From: Solirubrobacterales bacterium
GTDB lineage: Bacteria > Actinomycetota > Thermoleophilia > Solirubrobacterales > Solirubrobacteraceae
Assembly (NCBI GenBank): GCA_026392255.1
Contig: JAPLCJ010000049.1
Span: 6,921-70,920 of the forward strand
Direction: 5' to 3'
Length of the DNA: 64,000 nt
The translations under genes and the position numbers were made by a program. Of this stretch, positions 4,966 through 57,278 are shown in pieces. Below the pieces are notes generated by a model, which saw only the letters and a program-made list of their open reading frames with translations, did not search any database and was not told the DNA's origin. Position 1 is the first letter of the stretch, and every line of letters begins with the position of its first letter.

Positions 4966-5093
4966 CCGGACCTTTTGGAAGGTTTTCTGGACTCTCTCTT
5001 TCTCACTGCTATCTTCGCCCAGTTGCCGCGTGCGGCGTCGAGGCCGGTGGAGGACTCGACACTCGCCGATAGCCGCGTGGAAAAGGACCCCCA

Positions 5094-5792
5094 ATGCCTC
5101 AACCGAATTTCAGGTCTGAAGAGGAGCTGTACGCATTCACCCCAGAGGTGTTAGCTCAGCTGTTCCTAACAGCGAGAAGGAAGGGCGACGTCGAGACGGC
5201 TGCCGCCTCGGCCAAGGCAATGGCTTGGCAGATGCGCGGGCAACTGATCCGTCATGCCAAAAACCACACCGGGGCTGATGCGGATCCAGAGCTGATCGCC
5301 GACCAGACGATCAGCCGGGCTCTTCGGGGTGCAATGAAGATGGCGCAGACATTCAACGGAGATGCGCCCGGCCAAGTCTTTGAGTACATGATGACAATCC
5401 AACGCCGGGTCATTGCAGACCACATGAGGCGCGTAAAGGGCCGCGAAAGCATTGTCAGGATCGAATCGCTCCAGTCTGGGCCTGATGATCAGCACGGGCC
5501 AGACGGACGAGAGATTGCCGTCACCGACGATGATTTGATCGCCGTCCACATTGATGATCTAACTGACCAAGTGATGTCAGGTTTTCGCGCATCGCACCGA
5601 CAGATCATTCACATGCGACACATCATTGGCTATTCGTCAAAGGAGACCTCGGATGCCACAGGAGCAACCGTGAGCAATGTCGACAAGGTAATGGAGCGGT
5701 TCCGTAAAGCACTAGGAACGGCTTACCTAGAGGCCGACACAATCCCCGTAGACGACTCTGCCTCAGGGCATAATGGGAGTCACTCCAAATGA
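5094..5792 (+). CDS. Divergent sigma-70/ECF-like protein (region-2-like and region-4 HTH-like segments)
   Basis: 232 aa. The segment ELIADQTISRALRGAMKMAQTFNGDAPGQVFEYMMTIQRRVIADHMRR resembles ECF region 2. The segment HRQIIHMRHIIGYSSKETSDATGATVSNVDKVMERFRKAL resembles a region 4 HTH. There is a good SD (aaaaggaccccca before the ATG). This is a by-eye assignment only. Confidence 0.6.
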   Translation: MPQPNFRSEEELYAFTPEVLAQLFLTARRKGDVETAAASAKAMAWQMRGQLIRHAKNHTGADADPELIADQTISRALRGAMKMAQTFNGDAPGQVFEYMMTIQRRVIADHMRRVKGRESIVRIESLQSGPDDQHGPDGREIAVTDDDLIAVHIDDLTDQVMSGFRASHRQIIHMRHIIGYSSKETSDATGATVSNVDKVMERFRKALGTAYLEADTIPVDDSASGHNGSHSK

Positions 5793-6430
5793 CCACCGTT
5801 GACGACCGATTCGACCAGTACTCAAGCGCCGCCCGTGCGGGCGAGGGGATTGAGCTCGCTCCCCTCTTGGAGGGACTCGGTCAGGTTGAGAGGGCCGAGT
5901 TGACAGCCAGAGCACGCCGCTTCGACGCTTGGAACGAAGAGGCATCGGAATATCGCAATGCCCTCAAGACCAGCCCGGAGCTAGAGCGCCTAGGCCGTTC
6001 CGCCGCAGGCGTCTCGGGCGTATGGCCGTCCCTTCTTCCTCAGTTGCGCAAGGAGGCGGGCGTGGACAGGACCCAGCTGGCACAGCAGCTGTACGACCAG
6101 CTAGGGCCAGCAGAAGACGCTGAGAAGGTAGGCAATTACTACCACCAGATGGAGTGGGGAACTCTTCCTGCCAGCGGTGTGAGTCGGGAAGTTATTGAAG
6201 CCTTGGCAAACATCCTTGACACAGACCCAGACCAGCTTCAAGCATCCGGCACCGCAGGCGCCCAAGAATGGGAGCGCAAGCTCAGGAAGGCACAAACCGG
6301 TCGCCTGCCCAAGAGAGTGTTTGCACGCCTTGTCGGCGAATCCAAGCCGCTCTCCATCAACGACGAGGAATTCTCCCCTCCCAGGCCTGCGGATTGGGAC
6401 GAGACCGACAGGCTCTTCCTCGGCGGATGA
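5789..6430 (+). CDS. XRE-type helix-turn-helix protein
   Basis: 213 aa. The central segment LRKEAGVDRTQLAQQLYDQL...VGNYYHQMEWGTLPASGVSREVIEALANILDTDPDQL has the XRE/Cro-C1 HTH pattern. Its ATG overlaps the upstream stop as ATGA (5789-5792). Confidence 0.55.
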   Translation: MTTVDDRFDQYSSAARAGEGIELAPLLEGLGQVERAELTARARRFDAWNEEASEYRNALKTSPELERLGRSAAGVSGVWPSLLPQLRKEAGVDRTQLAQQLYDQLGPAEDAEKVGNYYHQMEWGTLPASGVSREVIEALANILDTDPDQLQASGTAGAQEWERKLRKAQTGRLPKRVFARLVGESKPLSINDEEFSPPRPADWDETDRLFLGG

Positions 6431-7077
6431 TTAGCCGCAGTTTCGCCGATCCAGCTGGCGGCCCGGCAGTACTGACTGATCGCCACGGAGCTGACGTTGC
6501 AGCGATGGAGGCCCGCGCCATTGCCGTTCTGGATGCGGTTCCTGACACAGCATGGGACGGCCGCCCACCCGTGCCGATCGAGTGGATTGCCACCGAGATG
6601 TTTGACCTCCACATCAAGGACCACGCTGACCTAGAGGGCCTGACTGGAGTGAAACTGCCTGAGGGAAAGTCCCTTTCAGGACTGTTGCTGCCAGATCAGG
6701 GAGTGATCCTCGTCAACGCTGACGAGGTGGCCAAGTGGCCAAACCGGCGACGCTTCACCATTGCCCACGAACTGGGGCATTGGGTCATGCACCGAGACAA
6801 CATGAGCTACCTACGATCGCGTTCCGCAGCGCCCGCGGCTCCCCAGATCACCACAGAGGGGCCGCCCTCATCACTCCTGCGACTTCCCATTGCCGAGGCG
6901 GAGGCCAATGCGTTTGCCGCCGCCTTACTCCTCCCCGCCAGTCTCCTGCGCTCCGCTGCAGACGCCTGTGCCTGCGACTCCAAGGTGCTGGTCGATGCTT
7001 TTGCCAGCACCTACGGGGCAATGCAGAGGCGCTTGGTTACCTTGGGCTACGAGCTAAAAGAACAGATGGCCAACTGA
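6427..7077 (+). CDS. ImmA/IrrE family (COG2856, M78) zinc metalloprotease
   Basis: It has the HEXXH motif FTIAHELGHWVMH (about 6766-6780) and the downstream EANAFAAALLLP motif typical of ImmA/IrrE. The track ORF 6268-7077 is trimmed to the ATG at 6427, which overlaps the upstream stop as ATGA (6427-6430). Confidence 0.85.
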   Translation: MISRSFADPAGGPAVLTDRHGADVAAMEARAIAVLDAVPDTAWDGRPPVPIEWIATEMFDLHIKDHADLEGLTGVKLPEGKSLSGLLLPDQGVILVNADEVAKWPNRRRFTIAHELGHWVMHRDNMSYLRSRSAAPAAPQITTEGPPSSLLRLPIAEAEANAFAAALLLPASLLRSAADACACDSKVLVDAFASTYGAMQRRLVTLGYELKEQMAN

Positions 7078-7085
7078 CCGAATGG

Positions 7086-7541
7086 TCAGTTGTTGGACCC
7101 AAGGCGGTCCCAGCAGTACAACCCAACGCACTCCTCTGCAAGCTCTCGACACCGAGCATCTGAAAGCCATGGCAGGACGGTCTCAAACCATTGCTCTTCG
7201 CCGACTCCTTGGTCGAAAGCATCCTCGCCCCGCATTTCGGCGGCAAGGCGAAGCGCCTCACGCTTGTTCTCACCGAGACTGGCGAATACGCCCGTAAGGA
7301 AATCTCGGTTGGCAACTGGCTGACCAACTTCGAGCGACGCGTGCCAAGCGGCGAGCATCGACAGGTCCTCTTCGTCGAGGTCATTGACGGCCTTGGCATA
7401 GTGAGTGGAGAGCTCGCCTTCAGGGATTTCATCAACCCAAGCGCGCACGATCTCGCCAAGCAGCTGCCGGCGTGCTTCACGCCCGACTGAGTCGGCGATA
7501 ACTCTGATGGCATTCTGTGGCTCGATGAAGCAGAGGGACAC
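7086..7541 (-). CDS. Hypothetical acidic protein
   Basis: This is the track ORF 7086-7595 with a protein-like composition and no motif I recognise. I prefer the GTG at 7541 as the start because it is preceded by GGAGAAACAA. It lies directly downstream of, and co-directional with, the 917-aa secreted protein gene. Confidence 0.5.
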   Translation of the reverse strand: MSLCFIEPQNAIRVIADSVGREARRQLLGEIVRAWVDEIPEGELSTHYAKAVNDLDEEDLSMLAAWHASLEVGQPVANRDFLTGVFASLGENKREALRLAAEMRGEDAFDQGVGEEQWFETVLPWLSDARCRELAEECVGLYCWDRLGSNN

Positions 7542-7658
7542 TTGTTTCTCCACTGAACTCGAAGGGCGGGCTGACCGTGGGGACCATACGCACACCCCCT
7601 GACGACAAGTGCGAAAATCAGCCCCGCGCCGCCGAGGGTGGTGATAGCGACATCTGAG

Positions 7659-10412
7659 CTAACCGACGGCCGTTACGACGATCGGCCTAGAAGTAAACGG
7701 AGTGAACGGATAGCTCGACTCGCTCGGGACAACGGCTCGGATGGAGTAGTTAACTCGGCCGACTGCCGTCCTGAACCTATAGCCGACAGACCATCTCCCT
7801 TCTGGATTTGCTCGGGCCACAGCAAAGGTTTGCCAGCCCCGGCGTGGGATAGACGCCTGAAGGAGTACCAACTTCCCCCCAGACGGCAAATGCCCGCCGT
7901 CAAGGCCTCCAGAGAAGACTGCGGTCCTCCCTACTCGGACCGTGCGAGGAGACACTCCTAGGCTTGATCTGGCAGCAACCCTGACGTGGATCAGCGTCGA
8001 AGTCTGAAGATCCCTGCGACTCCCGCTGTAAGTGAGGCGAAGATGCCTAGATGGCCCGTGCGCTAGGTGAAAGCTAAAGCGTCCGCTGCGGTCTGTCACT
8101 CCCGTTGAGAGCGGTTCCCAGCTAGCGCCGGTCAGCCAAAGCTGACTTTCTGCCGTCACAACCGCACCCGCAACCGGGAGATCATCGCGGTCAAGGATGC
8201 GTCCGTTCAGCGTGGACTCTCCAGAATGAGGAATAGTCACCGAAGTCGAAGCTGAGGCGAGGCCGGAGCCAAACTGACCCACGCCAGCTTCAATGCGTGA
8301 GGGTCCACGCAGCGGCAGCGCGACTAGCGCTGGATCACGGGTCACAGTCCTGTCCGTAGTGCTCTTGTTACCCGCAGCGTCAACCGCTGTAGCTTCAAGC
8401 TCCCAGAGCCCAGCGGGGAGCCCACTGTCGTCGATCATCCCCGTAGCTCGGGAACCAACAGTCTCTAGCGAAAGCGGCCTCCACTCGCCGCCGCTGATTG
8501 GCCGCATCCTCACGGTCACCGCCGTGATTCCGGATGTGGCGTCAGTTGCATCAACCCGAACTACACGCGGATCAGAAACATCTTGAGGGAGAAACACAAC
8601 TCGTTCTGGCGGAGTGCGGTCAAGCATGATCTGTCCGAGCACGCGTCCAGAAGTGTTGCCGGCCGCATCCTTGGCTTCCGCTGTCACTTGATGAATCCCA
8701 TCTGTGTCGATCGTAAGTCGAGTCTCTGACCCAGGATCCGACGCTGCTAATTCGCCATCAAGCCACATCCGAACCCCCGCGAGGCTGCCATCGGCACCAC
8801 CCATACCCGACAGCGCTGCCTGGTCCCTGCCACTCGCGGTCACCTCCGTTGGGCTCGATTCCCAGTGACCAGAAGGCCCAGAGAGTGAAGCTGTGGGTGG
8901 TGTTTCGTCAATCCTGATTGGAACGACAGCTGATTGACGGGAACGGACTCCCGAGCCGCTGATGGCTCGTATTGATATTTGGGATATACCCTCCGGCAGG
9001 TCCAGCAGGGCCAATATGCCGTCGCTCATCTGAGCAAAGGTTGGGTCGGAGCCCACGAACCAAGACCACTTTGTAACCCCTGATATCGGCCCGCTCTGAT
9101 CGTCCGGCAAACGAAGGTTAAGCGGAATTAGCCTTGCCCTCTCGCGCGTGATCCACCCCACCGGACCCAAGACTGAAGGTGTTGCAGGAGCCTCATCGTC
9201 AAACCTCAAGTGCGCCGCTGGCCCCTCGTCAAGCGAGGAACTGTTCCCGGCTGCATCTGTGACTGAAATACGGGCTATCCAATCGCCACGCTGAGGCACC
9301 GTCACGACAGCAGTTGCCTTCCTATCGGTGGGCGGGTCGAAATCCTGCGGAGCCAGACAGTTCAGTCCCGAACCGCTGCCAGAGCAAACCTCCAGCCGTG
9401 AATTTTCGATTGGTGCCCTACCAACCTCGTTAGGAATGTCCCAGGAGAGATGGAACACGTTCGATGTGCGCCAACTCTCGCCCCCTTCAACCTCTGGGGC
9501 TGACGAAACGGTAGGAGCGGTGCCGTCAATGCCAACCGTGCGTTCGACCTTGGCCTCGTTACCGGCAGCGTCACGCGCCACCGCACTGAGCTGCATCAGC
9601 CCCTCTCCGCTTCCGGGGCTGGAAACCGAGAATTGGGCTGTCTGGTCGGCGCAAGGCCGTGGCCGAGCGATGTCGCAAGGCTGAGGAGCATCGGAAGCTA
9701 GAACCCCATTACTCAACAACCTCAGATCAGAGACTCCCGATGCGTCCTTCGCGTCAAGGTCAAGGATTGTCCCTGGCTTGACCCACTTGTTCTCCAAGGC
9801 TGGACCGGTAGCGGTCAGCGTCGGAGGGGAGGGATCATTGACTCTGACTCTCAGAAACCAAGTCGCGAACTGAGCATCAGCATTACCACGCGAGTCTCCA
9901 CCGCGACAGCCCGGCCGCGTTACGCACGTCACCCCCATCTCCAACCACTGGGACGGGGCTATCTCCCGGTGCAGAAAACGAGCACCAGTGACCCAGCGAC
10001 GTGAGCACTCAGGGCCAGCAGGCCCACAGCCGAAAACTGAGCCCTGCTGCCCTGCCATGTTGGCTTGCCAACCCGAACCTCGGGTTCGATACTCGCCGGC
10101 CCAGTCAACACCCACAACAGATGTCCCACGTGGGGCATCAAAACGCCAGCCTGAGCCACGGCCGTGAGGGACGGTGAGGCCAAGAGTCGTACTACGCGCA
10201 AAGAGCCCATCTGAGACACCAAGCGCTGGACACCTTTGATGCACCACGAAAAGATCCGGGGCATCTGACCAGCTCGTCCATGACCTGTTCACCCCGCTCG
10301 CTGCGTCACACGCAGCAACTTCGTACGTCTTCCCCACGGCGGACGAGGGGATCGAAGCCAAAGCAATAAACGCGACAAATACTGCGGGCAGAGTTCGGGA
10401 CAAACGAGTCAA
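7659..10412 (-). CDS. Large secreted protein with repeated Ig-like modules and a C-terminal carboxypeptidase-regulatory-like beta-sandwich
   Basis: 917 aa. The signal peptide is MTRLSRTLPAVFVAFIALASIPSSAVG. A D(A/T)AGN strand motif recurs four times (ARDAAGNEA, VTDAAGNSS, AKDAAGNTS, AVDAAGNKS), each followed by ..D.T(A/P)P linkers. The TTG start at 10412 is preceded by AAGGAG at good spacing. Confidence 0.8.
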   Translation of the reverse strand: MTRLSRTLPAVFVAFIALASIPSSAVGKTYEVAACDAASGVNRSWTSWSDAPDLFVVHQRCPALGVSDGLFARSTTLGLTVPHGRGSGWRFDAPRGTSVVGVDWAGEYRTRGSGWQANMAGQQGSVFGCGPAGPECSRRWVTGARFLHREIAPSQWLEMGVTCVTRPGCRGGDSRGNADAQFATWFLRVRVNDPSPPTLTATGPALENKWVKPGTILDLDAKDASGVSDLRLLSNGVLASDAPQPCDIARPRPCADQTAQFSVSSPGSGEGLMQLSAVARDAAGNEAKVERTVGIDGTAPTVSSAPEVEGGESWRTSNVFHLSWDIPNEVGRAPIENSRLEVCSGSGSGLNCLAPQDFDPPTDRKATAVVTVPQRGDWIARISVTDAAGNSSSLDEGPAAHLRFDDEAPATPSVLGPVGWITRERARLIPLNLRLPDDQSGPISGVTKWSWFVGSDPTFAQMSDGILALLDLPEGISQISIRAISGSGVRSRQSAVVPIRIDETPPTASLSGPSGHWESSPTEVTASGRDQAALSGMGGADGSLAGVRMWLDGELAASDPGSETRLTIDTDGIHQVTAEAKDAAGNTSGRVLGQIMLDRTPPERVVFLPQDVSDPRVVRVDATDATSGITAVTVRMRPISGGEWRPLSLETVGSRATGMIDDSGLPAGLWELEATAVDAAGNKSTTDRTVTRDPALVALPLRGPSRIEAGVGQFGSGLASASTSVTIPHSGESTLNGRILDRDDLPVAGAVVTAESQLWLTGASWEPLSTGVTDRSGRFSFHLAHGPSRHLRLTYSGSRRDLQTSTLIHVRVAARSSLGVSPRTVRVGRTAVFSGGLDGGHLPSGGKLVLLQASIPRRGWQTFAVARANPEGRWSVGYRFRTAVGRVNYSIRAVVPSESSYPFTPFTSRPIVVTAVG

Positions 10413-10422
10413 GGGATTCTCC

Positions 10423-11655
10423 TTATGGTCCGAATTCGACGGACGCGCTGTTGGTTGTTTGACGAGAAGGCTGAGTGGCTGGACTAGTCAACGGCCGCCT
10501 AGTGGATCGGCTCACAGGGGCCTTCGGGGCCTCCGCGGCCATCGGCTCAAACTCAGCCGCGGGCGGAGTGACGACGCCACCAGACGGAGGCTGATCTGAG
10601 CTGGGCGTGTTCCCTCCGTCAGTCTCTGCACCTGATCCGCTCCCGACAGCCGAATCTATGACTGGCGCGGCGTGAACAACCCCGGTCGCAGCCGACTTAA
10701 GGGGTGGGTGAGAGACCACAGTGGTGATCGCGGTTCCTCCACCGGCAAGAGCTGCGGCCGAGGCCGCAACGGCTACAACCTTTCCAGTCGATGCAGCCTC
10801 AACCCAGACTTGTGCGCGAGTAGCCGCCGACACTGATCGGTCCCCCGCCCACACCGCGGCTGCGTGGACAGAGCTGTGGACCCGAGAAATACCCTCTCCC
10901 AGTAGCGGCAACACGAGCGCCAGGGTCGCGGGACGGCGCCTTATTTGCTGCGCATCAACGCGGCAAGCCTGACAGCGCCCGAGGTGGGCGCTCACCAGAT
11001 CGGGGGCGAGCCTCGTACCCCTAGGTGCTCCACCGAGAGTCTCGAGCACCTCTCGGCATTGCTCCCCTGATTCGATTGCTGCAACCCGTTGCTGGAACGC
11101 GCGGTTCCCTTCGGTCACAAGCCGGTTCACCTTCGTGTAGCTCCATCCCCTCAGCTGAGCAATCTCGTTGTAGCTCAAGCCCTCGGCCCGCAGCCGTAGC
11201 GCCTCCGCCTCGTGAGTCTTGAGTCGCCCCATTGCCTCCGTGGCAACGCGCAGCCGCTCCATCAGATCGGCTGAATGCTCAACCCGGCCAATGTCAACAA
11301 TTCCCTCAAGCGAATCCTCCGTAGACGCCACCCCCTTGAGTCGCTCGGCCCTAACAGCCATAGCCTCATGCTTGACGACCGTACGAAGCCAGGCATCCGC
11401 AGTTTCAGGGGCTAGTGAGTCGGCCCTGCGAATCAGAATCTCCATCCCCCTCTGGCAAGCATCGAATGCGTCATCGGCGCAAAGGCTGTAACGGCGCGCA
11501 ACCGCAAGCAACCGAGGCATCTCCTCCCCAACTAGCCTTTCAACCAAGTTCTCTTTTCCACGCGCCCCAGATGAGACCGGGCCGCTCCAGCGGCGAGCTC
11601 GCTGCGAAGTTCTTCTTGCCGTACCGCTGGTGGTTCTGGGTTCTTGCTTGGACAT
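10423..11655 (-). CDS. ECF sigma factor fused to a ZAS-type anti-sigma domain, a TM segment and a Pro/Ser/Thr-rich tail (ECF52-like architecture)
   Basis: Region 2 reads ADDAFDACQRGMEILIRR...AWLRTVVKHEAMAVRAER. Region 4 reads EAEALRLRAEGLSYNEIAQLRGWSYTKVNRLVTEGNRAFQ. The H-x3-C-x2-C motif is HLGRCQAC. A hydrophobic stretch reads VVAVAASAAALAGGGTAITTVV. The start is trimmed to the ATG at 11655 (MSKQEPR), preceded by GGGAAGGAGAACAG. Confidence 0.8.
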   Translation of the reverse strand: MSKQEPRTTSGTARRTSQRARRWSGPVSSGARGKENLVERLVGEEMPRLLAVARRYSLCADDAFDACQRGMEILIRRADSLAPETADAWLRTVVKHEAMAVRAERLKGVASTEDSLEGIVDIGRVEHSADLMERLRVATEAMGRLKTHEAEALRLRAEGLSYNEIAQLRGWSYTKVNRLVTEGNRAFQQRVAAIESGEQCREVLETLGGAPRGTRLAPDLVSAHLGRCQACRVDAQQIRRRPATLALVLPLLGEGISRVHSSVHAAAVWAGDRSVSAATRAQVWVEAASTGKVVAVAASAAALAGGGTAITTVVSHPPLKSAATGVVHAAPVIDSAVGSGSGAETDGGNTPSSDQPPSGGVVTPPAAEFEPMAAEAPKAPVSRSTRRPLTSPATQPSRQTTNSASVEFGP

Positions 11656-11877
11656 CTGTTCTCCTTCCCGTACTCGGGTAGGGGTGGTCATCTCTGAGTT
11701 CGCCCCCTTTGGGGCGGAATGAGGCCGGAACTTGACCTTGGGTGGTCGGTCCGGTCTGGCTATGGACATCTGCTCCGGCGGCGCGGGCAGCTATGCAATC
11801 GGTTCTACGCACCGTTGCCGGCGCGAAGCTACAAACCCATCAGCACCAAGAAAGGTGCGGATTACGATCGGGGAATC

Positions 11878-22847: not shown

Positions 22848-25800
22848 TTAGCCGTCAGGAGCCACGAGGCGATCGGTCGCCTCAAGGTCCCATGAGCAGA
22901 GTCGGCCGCGGGCGGGGCAGCCACTACAGGTCCCAACCCACGGCTTTTCAGTAACCGGAACATTGCCAGCAAGGAGCGGAGCTGCCCGCTCGCCAAGGCT
23001 GCTAGCTAGCGAAACAAGATCCTCAGAAGTGAACCGAACGGAAACAGGCTCATCGGGACGCTCTGCGTAGAGATGGATGACCTCAACCCCGTCGCCCGAT
23101 TCACCAACTGCAGCTGAACTGAGCGCCGCCAAGCCATAGGCCTGACGCTGGATTGAGTAGTCCCGCGCTACCAAAGCCTCAAGATCCTCAGCCTCTGCGG
23201 CCCCGGCGCTGGTCTTCCAATCCACCACCACTGGGCCACCACCGTCGCTTGTCGCAAATACATCGAAGATTCCCCTCAACGGAATGGAGTCATCGCCGCA
23301 GTCAAGCTTGACCACAAATCCCTCTTCCCGCGAAACCCTTCCCCCGACAGCGCTGATCTCGCGCAGCCTCGCCCAAGTCTTGGAGCCGATGATGCCGGCG
23401 GCAAGGTCACTGACATGGCTGGCCTCCTCGTCAGTGATTGAGATGTCGGCGATGTCAGCCTCGGCCTTCGCATCCGCAGCGGTCGGGACCGGACCATCCA
23501 GCGGCGCGTTCTCGAGTAGTCCATGCAGAATCACTCCACGCTCGTTTGGCCGCAGACCCGCTTCAGGCGCTGGCCCGGAGGACCTGGCTTCCCCAACGGG
23601 GCTGAGCTCAATGATGTTTTCCGCGTACCAGCGGAACGCGCACTTCCCAGCGGTTTGAAGGCCGCTGTAGGAGAGCGAGGACGGACGCAATGGCACGGCC
23701 TTCGGGTTGAGGGCGCCTTCGACCGGGTGAAGGTCGGGCTCGACACTTGTTGCAGGCACCTGCGGAATTGCCTTGAGCATGGCTTCAAGCCCCTGACCCG
23801 AGTCAACTGTCACATCCATCGTGGCCCCGCCGAGATACGTCTCGGTCCACGCGCCCGGCTCCCCTTCAGCTCCCGCGCCAGCGCAATGAGTTGCCAAGCC
23901 AGGGATCAGCTCCGCGTCGATCATCCGACTCAAGTTTGTGTTGCTACCACCCGCTCCCTGTGGCTTGGGAGCATCGACCGGCCCCTTGCTGAAGGTCCCG
24001 GAGAGGATCAACCGGCGCTGGGGCCGAGTGAACCCGACGTACATGATCCTCATCTCCTCAGCAACATCAGATGCCTTCTCCTGATCAACGAACTCCTGAT
24101 CAGCAAAAGTTGCCACGGCCTTGGCGCCAATCATCTCCCGCCACCTGAACAGGAGATTGCTCCCGTCTGCGCTGACTGAGAGCACCGCCGAGTCGTTGTT
24201 CGCGCCGCGGCCAAGGTCAACAAGCACGGTCAATGGGAACTGCAATCCCTTCGCCTGATGGATGGTCATCAGCCGCACCGCACCTTCCGACCCGCCGGCT
24301 TGCTCAACGACTGCCTCGCCATCGCGCTTGTTGTCAGCGCCAGCGAGCCGCAGGTCAGCCTCACGAGCGAATGCGGCGGGATCAGCCCCATGTTCAGCCT
24401 CCCAAGCAGAGGCGAGGGCCTGCATCCTGCGCACGTTGGCAAAGCGCCGGTCCCCAGCGGGGAGTCCGAGGAGGTAAAGGTCATAGCCGGTTTCGATCAG
24501 GGCAGCCTCAATCGCATCAGACAGAGACCGCCGTCCAGCCAGCGCGCGCTGCTGAGCAAACCAGGGAACAAAGCGATCGCGGATGCCTGCGTCCTCGTCA
24601 TCCAGCACAACGGTGCCGAGGGCTTCAATCAGAGGCACCTCTTTGTCTCGAGCCTCTCCCGCAACCAGCACCAGTGCGTCAACCGACAGACCGCAAATCG
24701 GCGAGTACAGCATGTGGAAGAACCTCTCCTCATGGCAGGCGTTGCCAGTTGAGGCAAGCAAGGCCACTAAGTCTGAGACCTCCGGGCGAATCCAGAGCCC
24801 GCCTGCTCCCTCAATCGTTGCTGGGATCCCAAACGATCGCAACGCCTCGGCGAAGGGCTTGAGCCCACTGACTGCTCTGGCAAGGACAGTCACATCGGAT
24901 GCTGCGTAGCCAGCAGTCTCATCGTCCAGCAAGTCCTTGATGCGCCGCGCAACAGCTGCGGCTTCCGCATCGCGCCAACCGTTTCCGACGATCGAGTCCA
25001 GCCACACCGGTGGGTCGTGCTCGTCAGCCAAAACTGCCTTGATCTGATCCCGATCTTCAAGGATCAGCTCAACCCGGTTGTCCTCTCGGACATTTGCCTC
25101 GCCGGCAGTGAGCGTAAGAAGCCCTTCCAGGTTCTGAGCGTCGAAGATGTGGTTGTTGGTTTCAAGAATCGGTGACCGCGAGCGGAAGTTTGTGGTCAGC
25201 TCGAACCGGCGTTCACGCCCACCAAGCTCATTGGCCCGCTGCTCGAAGATCTCAACCTCGGCGTGCCGGAAGCGATAAATCGATTGGGCCACGTCCCCCA
25301 CCGAGTAGTACTTGCCCTCCGGTGAAATCAGCCCAATCAGCTCGGACTGAATGCGGTTGATGTCCTGGGCCTCATCGAGGAAGACACGCTGGAACCGCGC
25401 GCCGGCAGGTCTCCAGTCACCAGTGTTGCCGTCCTTGGCTGCACTATCGCGGCGCTCTCTCAGGATCCTCAGGCTGAGAAGCGCCAGATCTGAAAAGTCG
25501 AGTAGGCCTGCATCAGCCTTCATCTCTGCGTAGGACAGGTCCCACTCCTCAAGTAGCGCTGCCATCAGAGTCAGGTCGGGGAGAGCGCAGAGGTTGGCTA
25601 CCTGTCCAGCCAGGATTCCCAGAGCATCATGCAGAGCCGCGCGCACCTCGCTACCCCCAAGGAGCTTCCCGGTCCCAGCAAGAAATTTATCCGGCGCACT
25701 CTGAGCGGTGTGCGGGGTCATGATCGAGATCAGCTCCGCCTCGGCCTGCCGGTTCTCGATTGTCTTGTTCGTTGCCCAGTCAGAGGACTCGGCAAGGAAC

Positions 25801-26459
25801 TGCTGGGCGAGAGCCTTCGCGGTCTCTAGCGTTGTCTCAACGGACTCCTTGGCCTCGGCCTCATCAGGGACGCCAAGCCGCGGGTGTTCCTCCCCACCAG
25901 TCCGCAGCCGAGCATGGACCGACCTGATGTTGCTCTCAAGTGATGCTCGCGGGTTGTCGTCGTAGTTGGCCAGCAGCTCGAGGGCGCTCTGACCGTGTTT
26001 CTCCTGAAAGCGTTCGAGCGTCACTGCCCAGGCCCGGCCGACAAGCTCAGGGTCTGACTCGTCAACAATCTTGAACCTCGGGTCAATCCCAAGCTCGAGG
26101 GCATTACGACGAACCATGCCCTGACAGAACCCGTCAATGGTCGAAACTTCGGGTTCCTCATCAGGGATCGGTGGTGGCGTGTCGAGCCCATCGCGGAGCC
26201 GGATCAGAGCAAGCGTCCGTGAACGAATCCGGTCGCGCATCTCTGCCGCAGCCTTCCGAGTGAATGTGATCGCAAGAACTTCGCTCGGTTTGACCGGCTC
26301 ACCAGTTGCCAATTTGTCAACCGTGACTGACAGCGCAACACACTCCGCAAGGACTCCGGTCTTGCCGCTTCCTGCTCCGGCGACAATCACCGCCTCGTCG
26401 TGGCGTGCCTCAATCGCAACGGCCTGCTCAGCCGTCCAGCTGCGGGTCGGATCGATCAT
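22848..26459 (-). CDS. UvrD/AddA-type ATP-dependent helicase-nuclease subunit (AddA/AdnB-like) with a C-terminal PD-(D/E)XK nuclease
   Basis: It has the Walker A motif VAGAGSGKTGV and UvrD motifs. The C-terminus reads GKCAFRWY...FDVFATSDGGGPVVVDWKTS...QRQAYGL...CSGCPARGRLC. The ATG at 26459 overlaps the upstream stop as ATGA (26456-26459). The track start at 26480 is a GTG without an SD. Confidence 0.85.
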   Translation of the reverse strand: MIDPTRSWTAEQAVAIEARHDEAVIVAGAGSGKTGVLAECVALSVTVDKLATGEPVKPSEVLAITFTRKAAAEMRDRIRSRTLALIRLRDGLDTPPPIPDEEPEVSTIDGFCQGMVRRNALELGIDPRFKIVDESDPELVGRAWAVTLERFQEKHGQSALELLANYDDNPRASLESNIRSVHARLRTGGEEHPRLGVPDEAEAKESVETTLETAKALAQQFLAESSDWATNKTIENRQAEAELISIMTPHTAQSAPDKFLAGTGKLLGGSEVRAALHDALGILAGQVANLCALPDLTLMAALLEEWDLSYAEMKADAGLLDFSDLALLSLRILRERRDSAAKDGNTGDWRPAGARFQRVFLDEAQDINRIQSELIGLISPEGKYYSVGDVAQSIYRFRHAEVEIFEQRANELGGRERRFELTTNFRSRSPILETNNHIFDAQNLEGLLTLTAGEANVREDNRVELILEDRDQIKAVLADEHDPPVWLDSIVGNGWRDAEAAAVARRIKDLLDDETAGYAASDVTVLARAVSGLKPFAEALRSFGIPATIEGAGGLWIRPEVSDLVALLASTGNACHEERFFHMLYSPICGLSVDALVLVAGEARDKEVPLIEALGTVVLDDEDAGIRDRFVPWFAQQRALAGRRSLSDAIEAALIETGYDLYLLGLPAGDRRFANVRRMQALASAWEAEHGADPAAFAREADLRLAGADNKRDGEAVVEQAGGSEGAVRLMTIHQAKGLQFPLTVLVDLGRGANNDSAVLSVSADGSNLLFRWREMIGAKAVATFADQEFVDQEKASDVAEEMRIMYVGFTRPQRRLILSGTFSKGPVDAPKPQGAGGSNTNLSRMIDAELIPGLATHCAGAGAEGEPGAWTETYLGGATMDVTVDSGQGLEAMLKAIPQVPATSVEPDLHPVEGALNPKAVPLRPSSLSYSGLQTAGKCAFRWYAENIIELSPVGEARSSGPAPEAGLRPNERGVILHGLLENAPLDGPVPTAADAKAEADIADISITDEEASHVSDLAAGIIGSKTWARLREISAVGGRVSREEGFVVKLDCGDDSIPLRGIFDVFATSDGGGPVVVDWKTSAGAAEAEDLEALVARDYSIQRQAYGLAALSSAAVGESGDGVEVIHLYAERPDEPVSVRFTSEDLVSLASSLGERAAPLLAGNVPVTEKPWVGTCSGCPARGRLCSWDLEATDRLVAPDG

Positions 26460-29432
26460 CGCATCGTCCGGCAGAGCCACTCGTAGCTACAGCCACCGTC
26501 GTAGCTGCAGTGGGCGGGGTCAGAATGCAAGAGGCCATCGCGGATTCCCATGACAGCATCACGGGCCCTCTTCCTGGCCGAATCAATCAGCGCTTGAAGC
26601 TCATCCTCCGACACAGCGTCCTTGCCCCTGTCATTGAGAGCTGAGGCTCCGGGAACACCTTCCACAATTGCGCCTCGCATCTTGCGATCCTTGACCGACT
26701 CATAGAGAGCGGCCGCTGGCTTGCCTCCAAGCAGCTGAATAGCCGCCAGTAGGTAGATCGGGGCCTGGAGGCGACGCTCTGACTCCCACTTCTCCTGTGC
26801 CCAAATGGTCTTCCCGCTTTTGTAGTCACGCACGAGGAGAGTTCGCTCCCCGTCGGCCTCAATGACATCAATCCGGTCCACGGTGCCGCGCAACTTGATC
26901 CCATCGCCGAGGTCGAGTGGGTCTCTGGCCTCTCGGCCTGTCTCTGGGTCGGCCTCACAGCCAAACTCGAACTCAACCTCAATTGCCTTCGCTGGCCAGT
27001 CTCGAGAACACTCAAGATCAAGCCACTGGAGTGACAGTGTCTCCGCGCGCTGAAGGGCCACGCGGGCCGCGAGTGTGTTGGCCGACTCTTTGCCGATCTT
27101 GGCGATTGCCTCGGTGATGGCCTTCTTGGCCGCTTCCATCACGGCAGGCTCGATCCGACCGTCGCCTTCCTCAATGGCAACCTCGACGGCGCGTTGCAGC
27201 GCGAAGTGGACAGCTGTCCCTCTAAACGTTGGCTCCCCTTCGGGCTCCATCTCCTTGGGACCGAGGACATTCTGCCCAAGCCATTTCAGAGGACAGTCGC
27301 AATAGGCCTCGAGGCGACTGGGTGACACGACCTTCTCGTATTCACTACCGATCTGAGCTCGGGCAGCCTCCCCCAGCTCGGGCAGCCTCCCCCAAGGTCG
27401 CCGGCAGGTCACGCACTCTGGAGCCACCAGCCTCGTTGGCTAGTAAGCGAAGTTTGAGCCGTCCGCCCTCGGTGTCCCCAATCGGTTGCACAGTCCCGGC
27501 CGAGCGGTCTGGCTTGCGCTCGGCGAAGGCCTCAAGGTCATAACCCAGCAGTCGCAGTACCTCGTCTTGATAAGCGGAGCTGGCCACTTGAGCCCCGGCG
27601 TCGTCACGCACTCGCCTGACAAGAATCACGCACTTCCGGGCTCGAGCAAAACAAGCAATGAAGCGCTCTTTCTCCCCCGCCTCTTGCCTTCCGGCAGCGC
27701 TGGAGTAACGGATGTCGTTCTGCTCGTCAGCTGGCAGGCGCGCCTCTCCTAGACAGTCGGCTGGCGTGTCTCCCAGGAACGGGTCGTGACCCGAGGCGGC
27801 GGGGAACAGACCGTGTTCCAACCCGTAGACAACAACTGCGTCAACTCTGCGTCCCCGAATCGATGACGGGTCGGTGAACAGAACCGCGCCCGTTCGTGCC
27901 GAACCCGTGTCAATGTCGACCTCAAGCGCACCGAGTTCCTCGATCATCGTCTGAGGATGGTCACGGTCAAAGAGCTCGGCCAAGTCAAGGGCTGACTTGG
28001 CGACCGTCGATACAACCGCCGCGTCAAAGAGCGTGTCCCGCTTCAGGCGCTCGCCGCGACTGACCGGCCCGGCACGCAGAAGCTCGTCGGCCGCCGTCGC
28101 GAGCGCGTCAGCAAGGTCCTTCTTGCTGGCATGCCTTGCGAGCCGTCGTCCCGTCTCAAGTTGCTCACCAATCTGGACGTCCCATGAACGGAGTACCTCT
28201 TCAGCTGAATGCACGCCCTTACGGCGAAGCTCAGCCTCAATTCGGTCCACAATCAGTGCACGCTCGGCCCCCGCTACCACCCGGACCCAGGCAAGGCCGT
28301 CCTCCAGCGTGGCTAGGTCAGCCTGGAAGGAAGCCCGACAGAGGCCGATCAGCCCCCGACCGAGCGTCGTGGCTCCCAGCGGGGCGGACTCGGGACGAGC
28401 TACGTCCACTCCCGAAAGGTTGAGTATTGATTCCAACAGCGCATCTCCATCGGCGTGTGGCCGCACAACTGCGATTGCCTCCGGTGCCATGCCGTCCTGG
28501 ATCAGTTCCAAGACTGCACCAGCCGCAAGCTCCGCAGTGGCACGCGCACCTGATCCGGTCAGGATCCGCACGCTGCTTCCATCATCAGTCACCACACTGC
28601 CCGCTGAATTGGAGAAGAGCTTGTCGGCCAGCTGGCCCAGCACGCCATTGGACTCTGGGTCAGAGTCAAGCAGCGTTTCCTTAACCTCAAGTCCGTTCCC
28701 AGCGCCTGCCTTGAGCCTGAGTGCCGCGGTCTGCGCGACGCCAACTCTGCGGTCGGTTTCAGTTGGGAGCGACACCATTACGTCCGTGCCATGCGCAAGC
28801 GCCTTGATCGTCTCCACCTGAACTGCAGTGAGGTCCGAGAAGCCGTAGAACAGGACCGGCTCCGACCCACCTATCGCGGGCGACATTCTCAGAGCGTCGA
28901 GTGAACGTCGGGCCTGAAGGTCACGGTCAGTTATCTCCCCGCCGGCAAGCCGCTCGAAGTAGGCGCGAACCAGACTCATCGTCGCGGCTGCGCGTGAAGG
29001 GCTGCTCTCGGACAGCATTTCCTCAAGCAGGTCGTCAAGAACCAGTCCGCGTGAGTGCTCCACAACCAGTCGCTCAAGTGCGATCGGGAACCCGGGAGCA
29101 CGGGCGGAATCAGTAATCCCTCCCAGAGACTTGTTGGCAAGGCCCGCCTCTACAACCTCGCGGACAATCAGCCTGCGCCGAAGCGGACCAATCAGCCTGC
29201 CCTTAACACCGCCGCGTCTAGCCAAATCACGGACGAACCGCTCCCACGTGACCACGCGACCACCGATCAGTGCTCCGTCCTCGAGGAGCTCATTCTCATA
29301 GGTCTCGCGGTCTGCGCCCGTGGGCACGACAAGCACTGGTGCTGAGCCTGATTCCGCTTCGGCGCGGAACCGGGACAGGACTACCCCCGCCTTTGAGGCG
29401 TTGGCCGGTCCAAGAATCAGGTCGAGAGGCAT
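26456..29432 (-). pseudogene. AddB/AdnA-like helicase-nuclease subunit, split into 695-aa and 323-aa ORFs by a 19-bp tandem duplication
   Basis: The N-terminal ORF (29432-27345) has a degenerate Walker A (LILGPANASKAG) and helicase-like domains. The C-terminal ORF (27427-26456) has an AddB/Cas4-like nuclease (SRLEAYCDCPLKWL, DRIDVIEADGERTLLVRDYKSGK, LQAPIYL, HCSYDGGCSYEWLC). Deleting one copy of the 19-mer joins them in frame: ...DLPATLGEAARAQIGSEYEKVVSPSRLEAYCDCP... The result is a 985-aa protein. Confidence 0.85.
27356..27394. repeat. Perfect tandem duplication of a 19-bp unit (agctcgggcagcctccccc, two copies plus 1 nt)
   Basis: Read directly from the sequence: copy 1 is 27356-27374 and copy 2 is 27375-27393, and they are identical. 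Confidence 0.97.
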
Positions 29433-29484
29433 CCTTGCCTACGGTCGCAGCGAGCTGACCGTTCCTGACAGAGCACCCAACTGC

Positions 29485-57204: not shown

Positions 57205-57278
57205 GCCGGAGTAGCTCAGCTGGTCAGAGCACCTGTCTTGTAAACAGGGGGTCACGAGTTCGAATCTCGTCTCCGGCT
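57205..57278 (+). tRNA. tRNA-Thr (anticodon UGU)
   Basis: Folded by hand: acceptor GCCGGAG/CTCCGGC, D-arm GCTC-AGCTGGTCA-GAGC, anticodon arm CCTGT-CTTGTAA-ACAGG, variable GGGTC, T-arm ACGAG-TTCGAAT-CTCGT, discriminator T. No CCA is encoded. Confidence 0.95.

Follow-up and report, generated by a model that had tools for sequence, protein, structure and literature searches.

A translationally coupled sigma factor, XRE-fold protein and M78 protease triad as a candidate stress switch of Solirubrobacterales

Introduction

What role could a sigma-like protein play when it is encoded in one operon with a helix-turn-helix (HTH) protein and an ImmA/IrrE-type metalloprotease? This question is raised by three consecutive open reading frames (ORFs), termed ORF1, ORF2 and ORF3, located in a 64,000-nucleotide stretch of a Solirubrobacterales genome (assembly GCA_026392255.1, contig JAPLCJ010000049.1, positions 6,921 to 70,920 of the forward strand), hereafter the window. 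The reading favoured here, with a probability of roughly 0.45 and by analogy with characterised systems, is that the triad constitutes a chromosomal, vertically inherited regulatory module of Solirubrobacterales, whose M78 protease gates an extracytoplasmic function (ECF)-like sigma factor via an XRE-fold partner. The triad is probably a stress-triggered switch, with DNA damage as the likely trigger, that turns on genes such as those of break-repair nucleases.

Known routes of ECF sigma factor activation comprise membrane proteolysis, partner switching, phosphorylation, C-terminal extensions and conformational change of the anti-sigma factor. If the favoured reading is true, the action of an M78 protease on an HTH-fold partner encoded in the same operon would be a further route, and the triad would join the ImmA/IrrE/CapP protease switches with sigma/anti-sigma pairs. 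Members of the Solirubrobacterales abound in soil and fresh water, and experimental work on them is scarce. The triad is a candidate damage-response regulator for this order, for which a defined promoter consensus and a first candidate target, an AddAB-like operon, are now available.

Results

Organization of the operon

The triad comprises the following genes, listed with the evidence for each assignment; lengths are in amino acids (aa).

5094-5792, plus strand: ORF1, 232 aa, divergent ECF-like sigma factor with sigma2 and sigma4 domains (profile, fold, recognition-helix conservation).
5789-6430, plus strand: ORF2, 213 aa, partner protein with an XRE-type HTH (family alignment, AlphaFold model, HTH_31).
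6427-7077, plus strand: ORF3, 216 aa, single-domain M78 (ImmA/CapP-type) zinc peptidase (Pfam M78, PADLOC CapP, active-site conservation).

The three genes are co-directional, and their stop and start codons overlap as ATGA at 5789-5792 (ORF1/ORF2) and 6427-6430 (ORF2/ORF3), exactly where the initial annotation, made from the sequence alone, had placed them. Although the longest ORF in the frame of ORF3 opens at 6268, translation is taken to begin at the overlapped ATG (6427), because the peptide RSFADPxGGP that follows this ATG is kept in relatives whose neighbouring proteins are no more than 41-50% identical.

The two junctions differ in their constancy among relatives. The sigma stop codon lies 7 nucleotides (nt) or less from the ORF2 start in 86 of 87 loci and overlaps it in 48, whereas the ATGA overlap between ORF2 and the protease is confined to the clade of the window. 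Elsewhere this second junction measures 11-74 nt, and many soil loci have a gap of ~264 nt containing a fourth gene of 50-85 aa. Sigma and ORF2 thus form a fixed core to which the protease is linked more loosely, and by analogy their tight junction is the arrangement customary for ECF sigma factors and their anti-sigma partners. The obligate co-expression of the whole triad deduced earlier from the overlaps is not supported across the family, given the loose ORF2-protease junction, the frequent intervening gene and one locus in which the protease gene has moved upstream.

The fourth small gene is present in many distant triads (L012:2265-2426, L039:4650-4850, L042:3239-3463 and about 30 others, where L numbers denote loci of the ORF2 family) and absent from the window. 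Its product carries the motif DPxALYRxALRxGDxxLA and has no Pfam match. In L005, where the protease is truncated, this gene is fused to a frameshifted ORF2. The idea, prompted by a common RxGD motif, that the small protein shares a domain with the N-termini of ORF2 or the sigma factor was dropped, as the ORF2 profile comparison matched the L005 fusion artefact only.

Conservation and genomic context

ORF2 relatives were gathered from contig look-ups, a GTDB scan that covered each species with one genome and was queried with a four-sequence alignment, and a metagenome scan. Sorting with family hidden Markov models gave 97 non-identical ORF2-family loci. The complete sigma-ORF2-M78 order is found in 67 of them, so that gene-order conservation, proposed earlier as a check, extends well beyond this genome. 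Another 29 loci end at a contig edge with the visible partner present in each, and in one (L104) the M78 gene is relocated upstream in divergent orientation; none of the 97 lacks a partner where the contig leaves room for it. Genome matches are predominantly metagenome-assembled genomes (MAGs) labelled Solirubrobacterales, Solirubrobacteraceae or just Actinomycetota (14 of 16), and one is a MAG labelled Acidobacteriota. Pairwise distances of the three proteins correlate strongly (r = 0.88-0.93). Partial correlations are highest for ORF2-M78 (0.65), followed by sigma-ORF2 (0.46) and sigma-M78 (0.29), which weakly suggests that ORF2 is the hub of the triad and fits the favoured model.

One MAG, ELA317, contains two triads (L013 and L017) with sigma factors 96% and 41% identical to that of the window. 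L017 lies in the FxsA/ORF4 context described below, and the L013 contig ends before any flanking genes; the double occurrence probably reflects a mixed bin of two related organisms rather than paralogues.

Three clades differ in their surroundings. In the window's clade (clade 1), genes for IspH, an acyl-CoA dehydrogenase, WS/DGAT, an Fe-S assembly protein and FxsA lie upstream, and a strongly conserved gene, ORF4, lies downstream on the opposite strand. In the second clade the triad is preceded by genes for an ABC/FtsX transporter and a DAO oxidoreductase and followed by those for RecD2 and cyclopropane-fatty-acid synthase (CMAS). The third, mainly from soil, has varied neighbours including ARPP-1 (13 loci), vWA (5 loci) and NurA-like proteins. 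Triads of this clade also adjoin genes for an ADP-ribosylglycohydrolase and for a type IIG restriction-modification system with Vsr; the promoter motif described below was found before neither.

No integrase or phage genes were found within 5-10 kb of the triads and no conjugation genes flank that of the window, in agreement with the initial annotation. ORF2 relatives were likewise absent from IMG/VR, GenBank phages and PLSDB plasmids, which argues that the triad is not a mobile-element immunity cassette. The only tRNA gene of the window (57205-57278) is more than 50 kb away, the window displays no GC anomaly, and PADLOC gave no match around its triad besides the protease. The triad therefore does not present the integrase, excision and structural genes of a prophage, plasmid or integrative and conjugative element (ICE).

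ORF1 is a divergent ECF-like sigma factor

As a single sequence, ORF1 falls just under the thresholds of the curated sigma factor models: TIGR02937 matches with an E-value of 2.9e-10 and 40.0 bits (cut-off 42.9), Sigma70_ECF with 20.4 bits (cut-off 21.1) and Sigma70_r4_2 with 16.3 bits (cut-off 25.7), and Pfam reveals no Sigma70_r2 match. A word-indexed homologue search with ORF1 returned near-identical proteins only, and its profile version added little; an exhaustive phmmer search yielded 85 cluster representatives. A family profile built from 27 sequences retrieved SigL (E = 4.3e-15) and RpoE (E = 3.5e-14) from the Protein Data Bank (PDB), aligning with SigL residues 2-150 and with RpoE across both domains. 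The AlphaFold model of ORF1 (mean predicted local distance difference test, pLDDT, of 86.5) displays two helical domains separated by a low-confidence linker (aa 128-144), the sigma2 plus sigma4 architecture of ECF (group 4) factors, with regions 1.1 and 3 absent. The top 50 PDB neighbours of the model by Foldseek are all sigma factors. Family profile and predicted fold thus identify ORF1 as a divergent two-domain ECF-like sigma factor. In the region-4 recognition helix, residues N195, V196, D197 and R202 are invariant or nearly so across the family.

ORF1 probably lies outside the current ECF groups, as judged from its sequence. The main text of the ECF re-classification (Casas-Pastor et al. 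2021) ties no ECF group to M78 or to an XRE protein of this kind; ECF130 and ECF201 are described as located near HTH proteins, ECF201 being restricted to Firmicutes. Literature searches returned no description of a triad of an ECF sigma factor with an M78/DUF955/COG2856 protease.

ORF2 combines an XRE-type HTH with unusual flanks

For the ORF2 family there is no curated model. The protein comprises a helical N-domain of ~75 residues (aa 1-73) ahead of the HTH, an HTH core (aa ~78-155), a low-confidence or disordered linker and a conserved C-terminal helix. HTH_31 matches the single ORF2 sequence at E = 0.0057, which is under the gathering cut-off, and 6 of 18 family members, with a best E-value of 7.5e-5. 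The AlphaFold model (pLDDT 77) finds its best PDB neighbours in the XRE-fold proteins ClgR, C.BclI, GraA/HigA and Stl with probabilities of 0.96-0.99 and TM-scores to target of 0.5-0.6, yet with global E-values above 0.2. The five-helix HTH of the XRE/Cro-C1 type is present, with an insertion of ~9 residues between helices 2 and 3. Comparison of the ORF2 profile with PDB sequences gave chance-level matches only (PanZ, E = 0.4), and neither a zinc motif nor a transmembrane segment was recognised.

The recognition helix carries an invariant YYHxMEWG motif (residues 117-124). Positions aligned with the base-contacting residues of 434-type repressors are variable across the family, whereas this motif is constant. 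Net charge of the HTH, -7 in the window's ORF2 and ranging from -10 to +7 across the family, was considered as a test of DNA binding and gave no decision. The only invariant residues of the linker are F178-A179-R180 (nt 6320-6328). The C-terminal helix reads WDETDRLFLGG in the window (nt 6395-6427) and WDxTDRLFLGG as the family form.

ORF3 is a small M78 peptidase

ORF3 matches Peptidase_M78 (PF06114) with an E-value of 1.1e-12 and 48.2 bits, well over the cut-off of 22. The HELGH motif spans aa 114-118 (nt 6766-6780) and the third-ligand motif EAEANAF spans aa 157-163 (nt 6895-6915); the HExxH and the downstream glutamate ligand are kept over 72 homologues, placing the family within M78. The closest PADLOC model is CapP (E = 1.2e-19), although it covers the peptidase part only (profile positions 19-137 of 242). 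Proteases of the ORF3 family measure roughly 180-220 aa, and the 216 residues of ORF3 leave no room for the HTH-like linker and C-terminal GAF domain that, together with the peptidase, form the three-domain architecture of CapP and IrrE and serve them in binding single-stranded DNA (ssDNA). CapP, in contrast to IrrE, also possesses a cysteine switch (domain boundaries and switch from PMC13228613). At the corresponding position, 12 residues past the second histidine, most members of the protease family have a cysteine, whereas the window's protease has an arginine and its near relatives an arginine or alanine. Lacking both the CapP/IrrE domains and the cysteine switch, ORF3 resembles ImmA in size.

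The N-terminal RSFADPxGGP peptide (ORF3 aa 4-13, window 6436-6465; also in L003, L009 and L016) is a property of clade-1 proteases and resembles the VFAR motif of ORF2. The CapP-like cysteine has been lost from most proteases of clade 1. As judged from this resemblance, the peptide could be a pseudo-substrate autoinhibitor of these proteases.

Overall, the earlier assignment of the three products as sigma-like, XRE-HTH and ImmA/IrrE-type is borne out by profiles and folds. The model searches recommended at that stage succeeded in part, with ORF3 above the M78 cut-off, and ORF1 (TIGR02937 and ECF models) and ORF2 (HTH_31) below theirs as single sequences; the sigma fold of ORF1, the other point to be checked, was recovered by both family profile and Foldseek.

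A candidate sigma-type promoter motif

Of 59 non-redundant stretches preceding the sigma genes, 28 contain the hexamer TGTCAG, compared with 2 of 59 coding controls. The hexamer constitutes the leading half of the bipartite motif TGTCAG(G/A)-N16/17-CGAC(C/T). In 109 stretches totalling 644 kb, the full motif is present 68 times against ~7 occurrences expected, a value obtained by scaling the shuffle expectation for the window (0.73 per 64 kb). It mostly ends 9-11 nt before start codons, which implies leaderless or nearly leaderless transcripts. Genes behind the motif include those for the sigma factors themselves, ARPP-1, vWA, NurA-like, GGACT and SHOCT proteins and several unknowns. The architecture of the motif matches that of known ECF promoters, such as those of ECF41 with the consensus TGTCACA-n16-CGTC; -10 elements of the CGTC type are described as typical for this class of promoter (PMC3426412). 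The near-invariance of the ORF1 recognition helix suggests that all clades should read one -35 element.

Inspection of the upstream regions by eye revealed no conserved operator-like or palindromic element apart from the two promoter blocks. Inverted motif pairs are present at divergent promoters, as in L054 (CTGACA-N4-TGTCAG). The RecA-NDp/PafBC motif (TGTCRGTG-N8-TAnnnT) was ruled out as an explanation, since none of the motif instances has a TAnnnT at the required distance.

In 13 soil-clade loci the ARPP-1 gene (PF20208) is divergent to the triad (e.g. L041:552-1526, L108:2299-3255 and L104:6076-7104), often with the sigma-type motif 9 nt before its start. These genes, and the ADP-ribosylglycohydrolase encoded close to one triad, point tentatively towards conflict systems of the ADP-ribosylation type.

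An AddAB-like operon as candidate target

A position weight matrix (PWM) built from 33 unique motif instances gave two matches above 14 bits in the window. The stronger precedes a DNA-repair operon:

29444-29470, minus strand: best window match to the sigma-type promoter, TGTCAGG-N17-CGAC (PWM 23.4 bits).
22848-29432, minus strand: AddAB/AdnAB-type helicase-nuclease operon, candidate regulon member, its link to the triad being the promoter motif alone.

The site lies in the 52-nt gap that follows topB (topoisomerase III), 11 nt before the ATG of the addB-like gene (29432). A score of 23.4 bits was attained in 2 of 400 random 64-kb sequences, counting matches anywhere and ignoring position. The operon encodes an AddB_N protein (27345-29432), a PD-(D/E)XK nuclease (26456-27427) and an AddA-like protein with UvrD and PD-(D/E)XK parts (22848-26480). 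A break-resection target of the AddAB type agrees, by analogy, with the DNA-damage logic of ImmA, IrrE and CapP. The addB-like gene appears split, its AddB_N and PD-(D/E)XK parts overlapping by 83 nt; a frameshift or an assembly error may be the cause, or there may truly be two genes.

The second match is internal to ORF1:

5575-5601, plus strand: candidate internal sigma-type promoter, TGTCAGG-N17-CGAC (PWM 17.8 bits; low confidence).

A score of 17.8 bits is reached in 15% of random windows, and the site is kept in close relatives only. An in-frame ATG (M174, 5613-5615) follows 11 nt past it, and L003 has TGTCAGA-N17-CGTC at the same place. With low confidence, the site could give a leaderless transcript encoding a sigma4-only fragment together with ORF2 and ORF3. 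An argument for such a promoter from codon usage was set aside as weak, since TCA accounts for 21% of serine codons here. Exact motif matches at 1655 and 33184 score under 14 bits and are probably due to chance.

Upstream region of the window's operon

Two elements precede ORF1:

4987-5015, plus strand: putative housekeeping-like promoter, with a -35-like CTGGAC (4987-4992), a 17-nt spacer and a -10 TATCTT (5010-5015) (conservation).
5026-5080, plus strand: structured 5' leader hairpin ending just before the Shine-Dalgarno sequence (RNAalifold).

The block CTGCTATCTTCG is invariant in all 7 clade-1 loci compared, despite sigma identities of 32-41% among them, and its CTGGAC/TATCTT elements are presumed from the sequence to act as a promoter. 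RNAalifold folds the leader into 18 pairs, of which 9 display compensatory changes, across approximately three lineages; an Rfam scan of the operon including the leader gave no relevant match. A degenerate sigma-type motif lies inside the leader (CGTCGA at 5036-5041, N15, CGAC at 5057-5060). The arms of the hairpin overlap these -35-like and -10-like blocks, and the leader may thus act at the level of RNA, of DNA or of both.

Neighbouring genes

ORF4 (7086-7595, minus strand; 151-169 aa) faces ORF3 in convergent orientation, and Pfam, NCBIfam, PHROGs and PADLOC gave no match to it. In clade 1 it is far better conserved than the triad and FxsA, scoring 311-376 bits compared with 68-160 for the sigma factor in the divergent clade-1 loci, and it is absent from the triad contexts of other clades. 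Further neighbours in the window encode an Ig-like protein, a second ECF sigma factor, a TetR protein and an FMO. The second sigma factor, which is 448 aa long and extended at its C-terminus, is encoded directly upstream of the 917-aa Ig-like-rich protein (7659-11769, minus strand, for the pair). This pair is found in some clade-1 relatives and is gone from others (e.g. L003).

Discussion

Proposed mechanism

In the favoured model, translational coupling would produce ORF1 and ORF2 in fixed proportion. ORF2 would hold ORF1 in an inactive state, most likely as a new cytoplasmic anti-sigma factor that binds it directly, with the N-domain and/or the C-terminal helix as putative sigma-binding parts. 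A stress signal, which by analogy with ImmA, IrrE and CapP may be DNA damage or ssDNA, would switch on ORF3, and ORF3 would then cleave the ORF2 linker at or beside F-A-R. CapP, once activated by ssDNA, cuts CapH between F82 and R83, while DdrO and ImmR are cleaved by related enzymes (Lau et al. 2022, 10.1101/2022.04.27.489752); the F-A-R motif is tentatively compared with this cut site. The freed sigma factor would steer RNA polymerase to TGTCAG(G/A)-N16/17-CGAC promoters, giving leaderless or near-leaderless mRNAs. In most relatives, motif promoters before the sigma operon would provide positive feedback and others would activate adjacent genes, while in this genome the clear target would be the AddAB-like double-strand-break resection operon. 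Cleavage of ORF2, sequestration of the sigma factor and the nature of the signal are thus modelled on the characterised systems. In its widest form, an order-wide Solirubrobacterales stress response, probably to DNA damage, in which the operon's M78 protease destroys an XRE-fold anti-sigma factor and the freed sigma reads TGTCAGG-N16/17-CGAC, including the AddAB genes here and adjacent conflict-system genes elsewhere, the proposal is tentative and stands short of even odds.

The protease-gated switch of the initial annotation remains the best model, and the tight sigma-ORF2 coupling and the candidate sigma-type promoter add support to it. The coupling, the lack of a visible separate operator, the variable base-contact positions and the HTH charge of -7 all favour an anti-sigma role for ORF2. 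Several observations weigh against the model. Residues 1-75 of ORF2 have no relatives by Pfam, PDB sequence search or Foldseek, and an anti-sigma domain of the zf-HC2, RskA or RseA_N type was matched by Pfam in none of the 18 family members scanned. The well-kept HTH with its invariant recognition-helix motif suits a DNA-binding repressor equally. In the window's clade the sigma gene stands behind the housekeeping-like TATCTT promoter and the motif copy is only degenerate. ORF1 is presumed to be the sigma factor that reads the motif from the position of the sites and by analogy, and the link between addB and the triad consists of one site in one genome. Finally, because ORF3 has no GAF domain and the window's clade no CapP-like cysteine, ssDNA as the signal is an analogy only.

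Alternative explanations

The same protein features allow ORF2 to be viewed as a DNA-binding XRE repressor acting on promoters, perhaps on TGTCAG itself, that is cleaved by ORF3 after damage, with the sigma factor as a derepressed product that makes no contact with ORF2 and goes on to transcribe the regulon, in the manner of DdrO/IrrE, CapH/CapP or PBSX. All characterised partners of this type of M78 protease (ImmR, DdrO and CapH) are DNA-binding repressors, and the XRE fold of ORF2 with YYHxMEWG on its recognition helix, the HTH that is neutral to basic in many family members and the missing anti-sigma domain would all be in keeping with such a function; inverted TGTCAG pairs such as that of L054 could suit a dimeric binder. 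This account, the main rival, is nonetheless judged less likely than the favoured model. No conserved palindromic operator was seen outside the two promoter blocks, the 434-type contact positions vary, and the HTH of the window has a net charge of -7. In addition, the HTH is central rather than N-terminal and is not followed by a sizeable C-terminal oligomerisation domain, and the near-universal tight sigma/ORF2 junction, typical of sigma/anti-sigma pairs, would be unneeded for a repressor.

A different view of the output, compatible with either an anti-sigma or a repressor mechanism, holds that the triad controls adjacent conflict or immune operons upon phage infection or DNA damage, the window's copy being domesticated or orphaned. 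It draws on the soil clade, where the motif precedes ARPP-1, vWA and NurA-like neighbours and where the ADP-ribosylglycohydrolase and the type IIG system with Vsr adjoin triads; on CapP as the best protease model and the cysteine at the switch position in most family members; and on the capH, capP and sigma genes found beside cyclic-oligonucleotide-based antiphage signalling systems (CBASS) by Lau et al. For the soil clade such a role is plausible. As a general account it is improbable, since the window and two large clades reside in stable housekeeping synteny (FxsA/ORF4 or DAO/RecD2/CMAS/ABC transporter) with no recognisable defence operon and no PADLOC match besides the protease, and the sole strong motif match of the window precedes a DNA-repair operon. 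Still less credible is a toxin-antitoxin-like Xre-COG2856 pair, or the decayed end of a mobile element, lying beside an unrelated sigma gene. Pairs of that kind are predicted to be toxin-antitoxin-like and are common in prophages and ICEs, and PHROG families do match ORF3 and, weakly, ORF1. Against this stand co-inheritance without exception in 97 loci, the strongly correlated distance matrices, the absence of integrase or phage genes within 5-10 kb and of tRNA genes within 50 kb, the even GC content and the lack of ORF2 relatives in viral, phage and plasmid collections, which together largely exclude it.

Comparison with known systems

The CapH/CapP pair offers a close parallel to ORF2 and ORF3. 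In both, an XRE-type HTH gene lies immediately upstream of a gene for an M78 HExxH peptidase; CapP is the best model for ORF3, its switch-position cysteine recurs in most triad-family proteases, and CapH is cut at a Phe-Arg bond comparable with the invariant F-A-R of the ORF2 linker. The differences are nevertheless substantial. The HTH-linker and GAF domain that form the ssDNA groove of CapP are absent from the 216-aa ORF3, and the switch cysteine of CapP is an arginine in the window. ORF2 differs from CapH in carrying a 75-aa N-domain before the HTH and a short C-terminal helix in place of the dimerisation domain. In the triad, moreover, the sigma factor is obligate and translationally coupled, and the context is housekeeping synteny rather than an immune operon.

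DdrO/IrrE (PprI) of Deinococcus is likewise a chromosomal, lineage-wide switch in which an M78 protease removes an XRE regulator after DNA damage and repair genes are induced; the candidate target of the triad is also a DNA-repair operon. In contrast to the triad, IrrE is a three-domain protein with a GAF domain, DdrO acts on a palindromic motif as a classical repressor, no sigma factor takes part, and the genes are not joined in one operon. ImmA of ICEBs1 and phage phi105 is, as ORF3, a small single-domain M78 protease, and cleaves the adjacent XRE repressor ImmR. That pair is a mobile-element switch operated through RecA or RapI and has no sigma factor, whereas the triad is not located on a mobile element.

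The sigma side of the triad recalls the ECF pairs RpoE-RseA, SigW-RsiW and SigL-RslA, which share a two-domain sigma factor, a partner gene directly downstream with overlapping or abutting codons, and, in the triad as a candidate, a bipartite promoter with a 16-17-nt spacer and a CGAC/CGTC-type -10 element, often placed before the sigma gene itself. Removal of the inhibitor by proteolysis is also common to them and, putatively, to the triad. ORF2 itself differs in having no recognisable anti-sigma domain, zinc motif or transmembrane segment, and the triad protease is a cytoplasmic M78 enzyme encoded in the operon rather than a site-1/site-2 membrane protease or ClpXP.

In the PBSX element of Bacillus subtilis, an XRE repressor (Xre) and an ECF-like sigma factor (Xpf) drive downstream genes after DNA damage. 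PBSX also has an ImmA-like protein, XkdA. It differs from the triad in being a defective prophage whose genes do not form one coupled operon and whose sigma factor is controlled transcriptionally.

The initial annotation had considered a sigma factor joined to such an HTH/protease pair to be undescribed. PBSX and the 24 CBASS systems reported, in one sentence, to encode capH, capP and a sigma-70-family sigma factor (Lau et al. 2022, 10.1101/2022.04.27.489752) revise that claim, and no literature follow-up on the sigma factors beside capH/capP was found. The bare association of sigma factor, HTH protein and protease is therefore already known. What is new is its form as an obligate, order-wide, chromosomal and coupled triad, together with the distinct architecture of ORF2, the candidate promoter and a first candidate target. 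The triad in turn suggests a possible role for the sigma factors located beside capH and capP in some CBASS loci.

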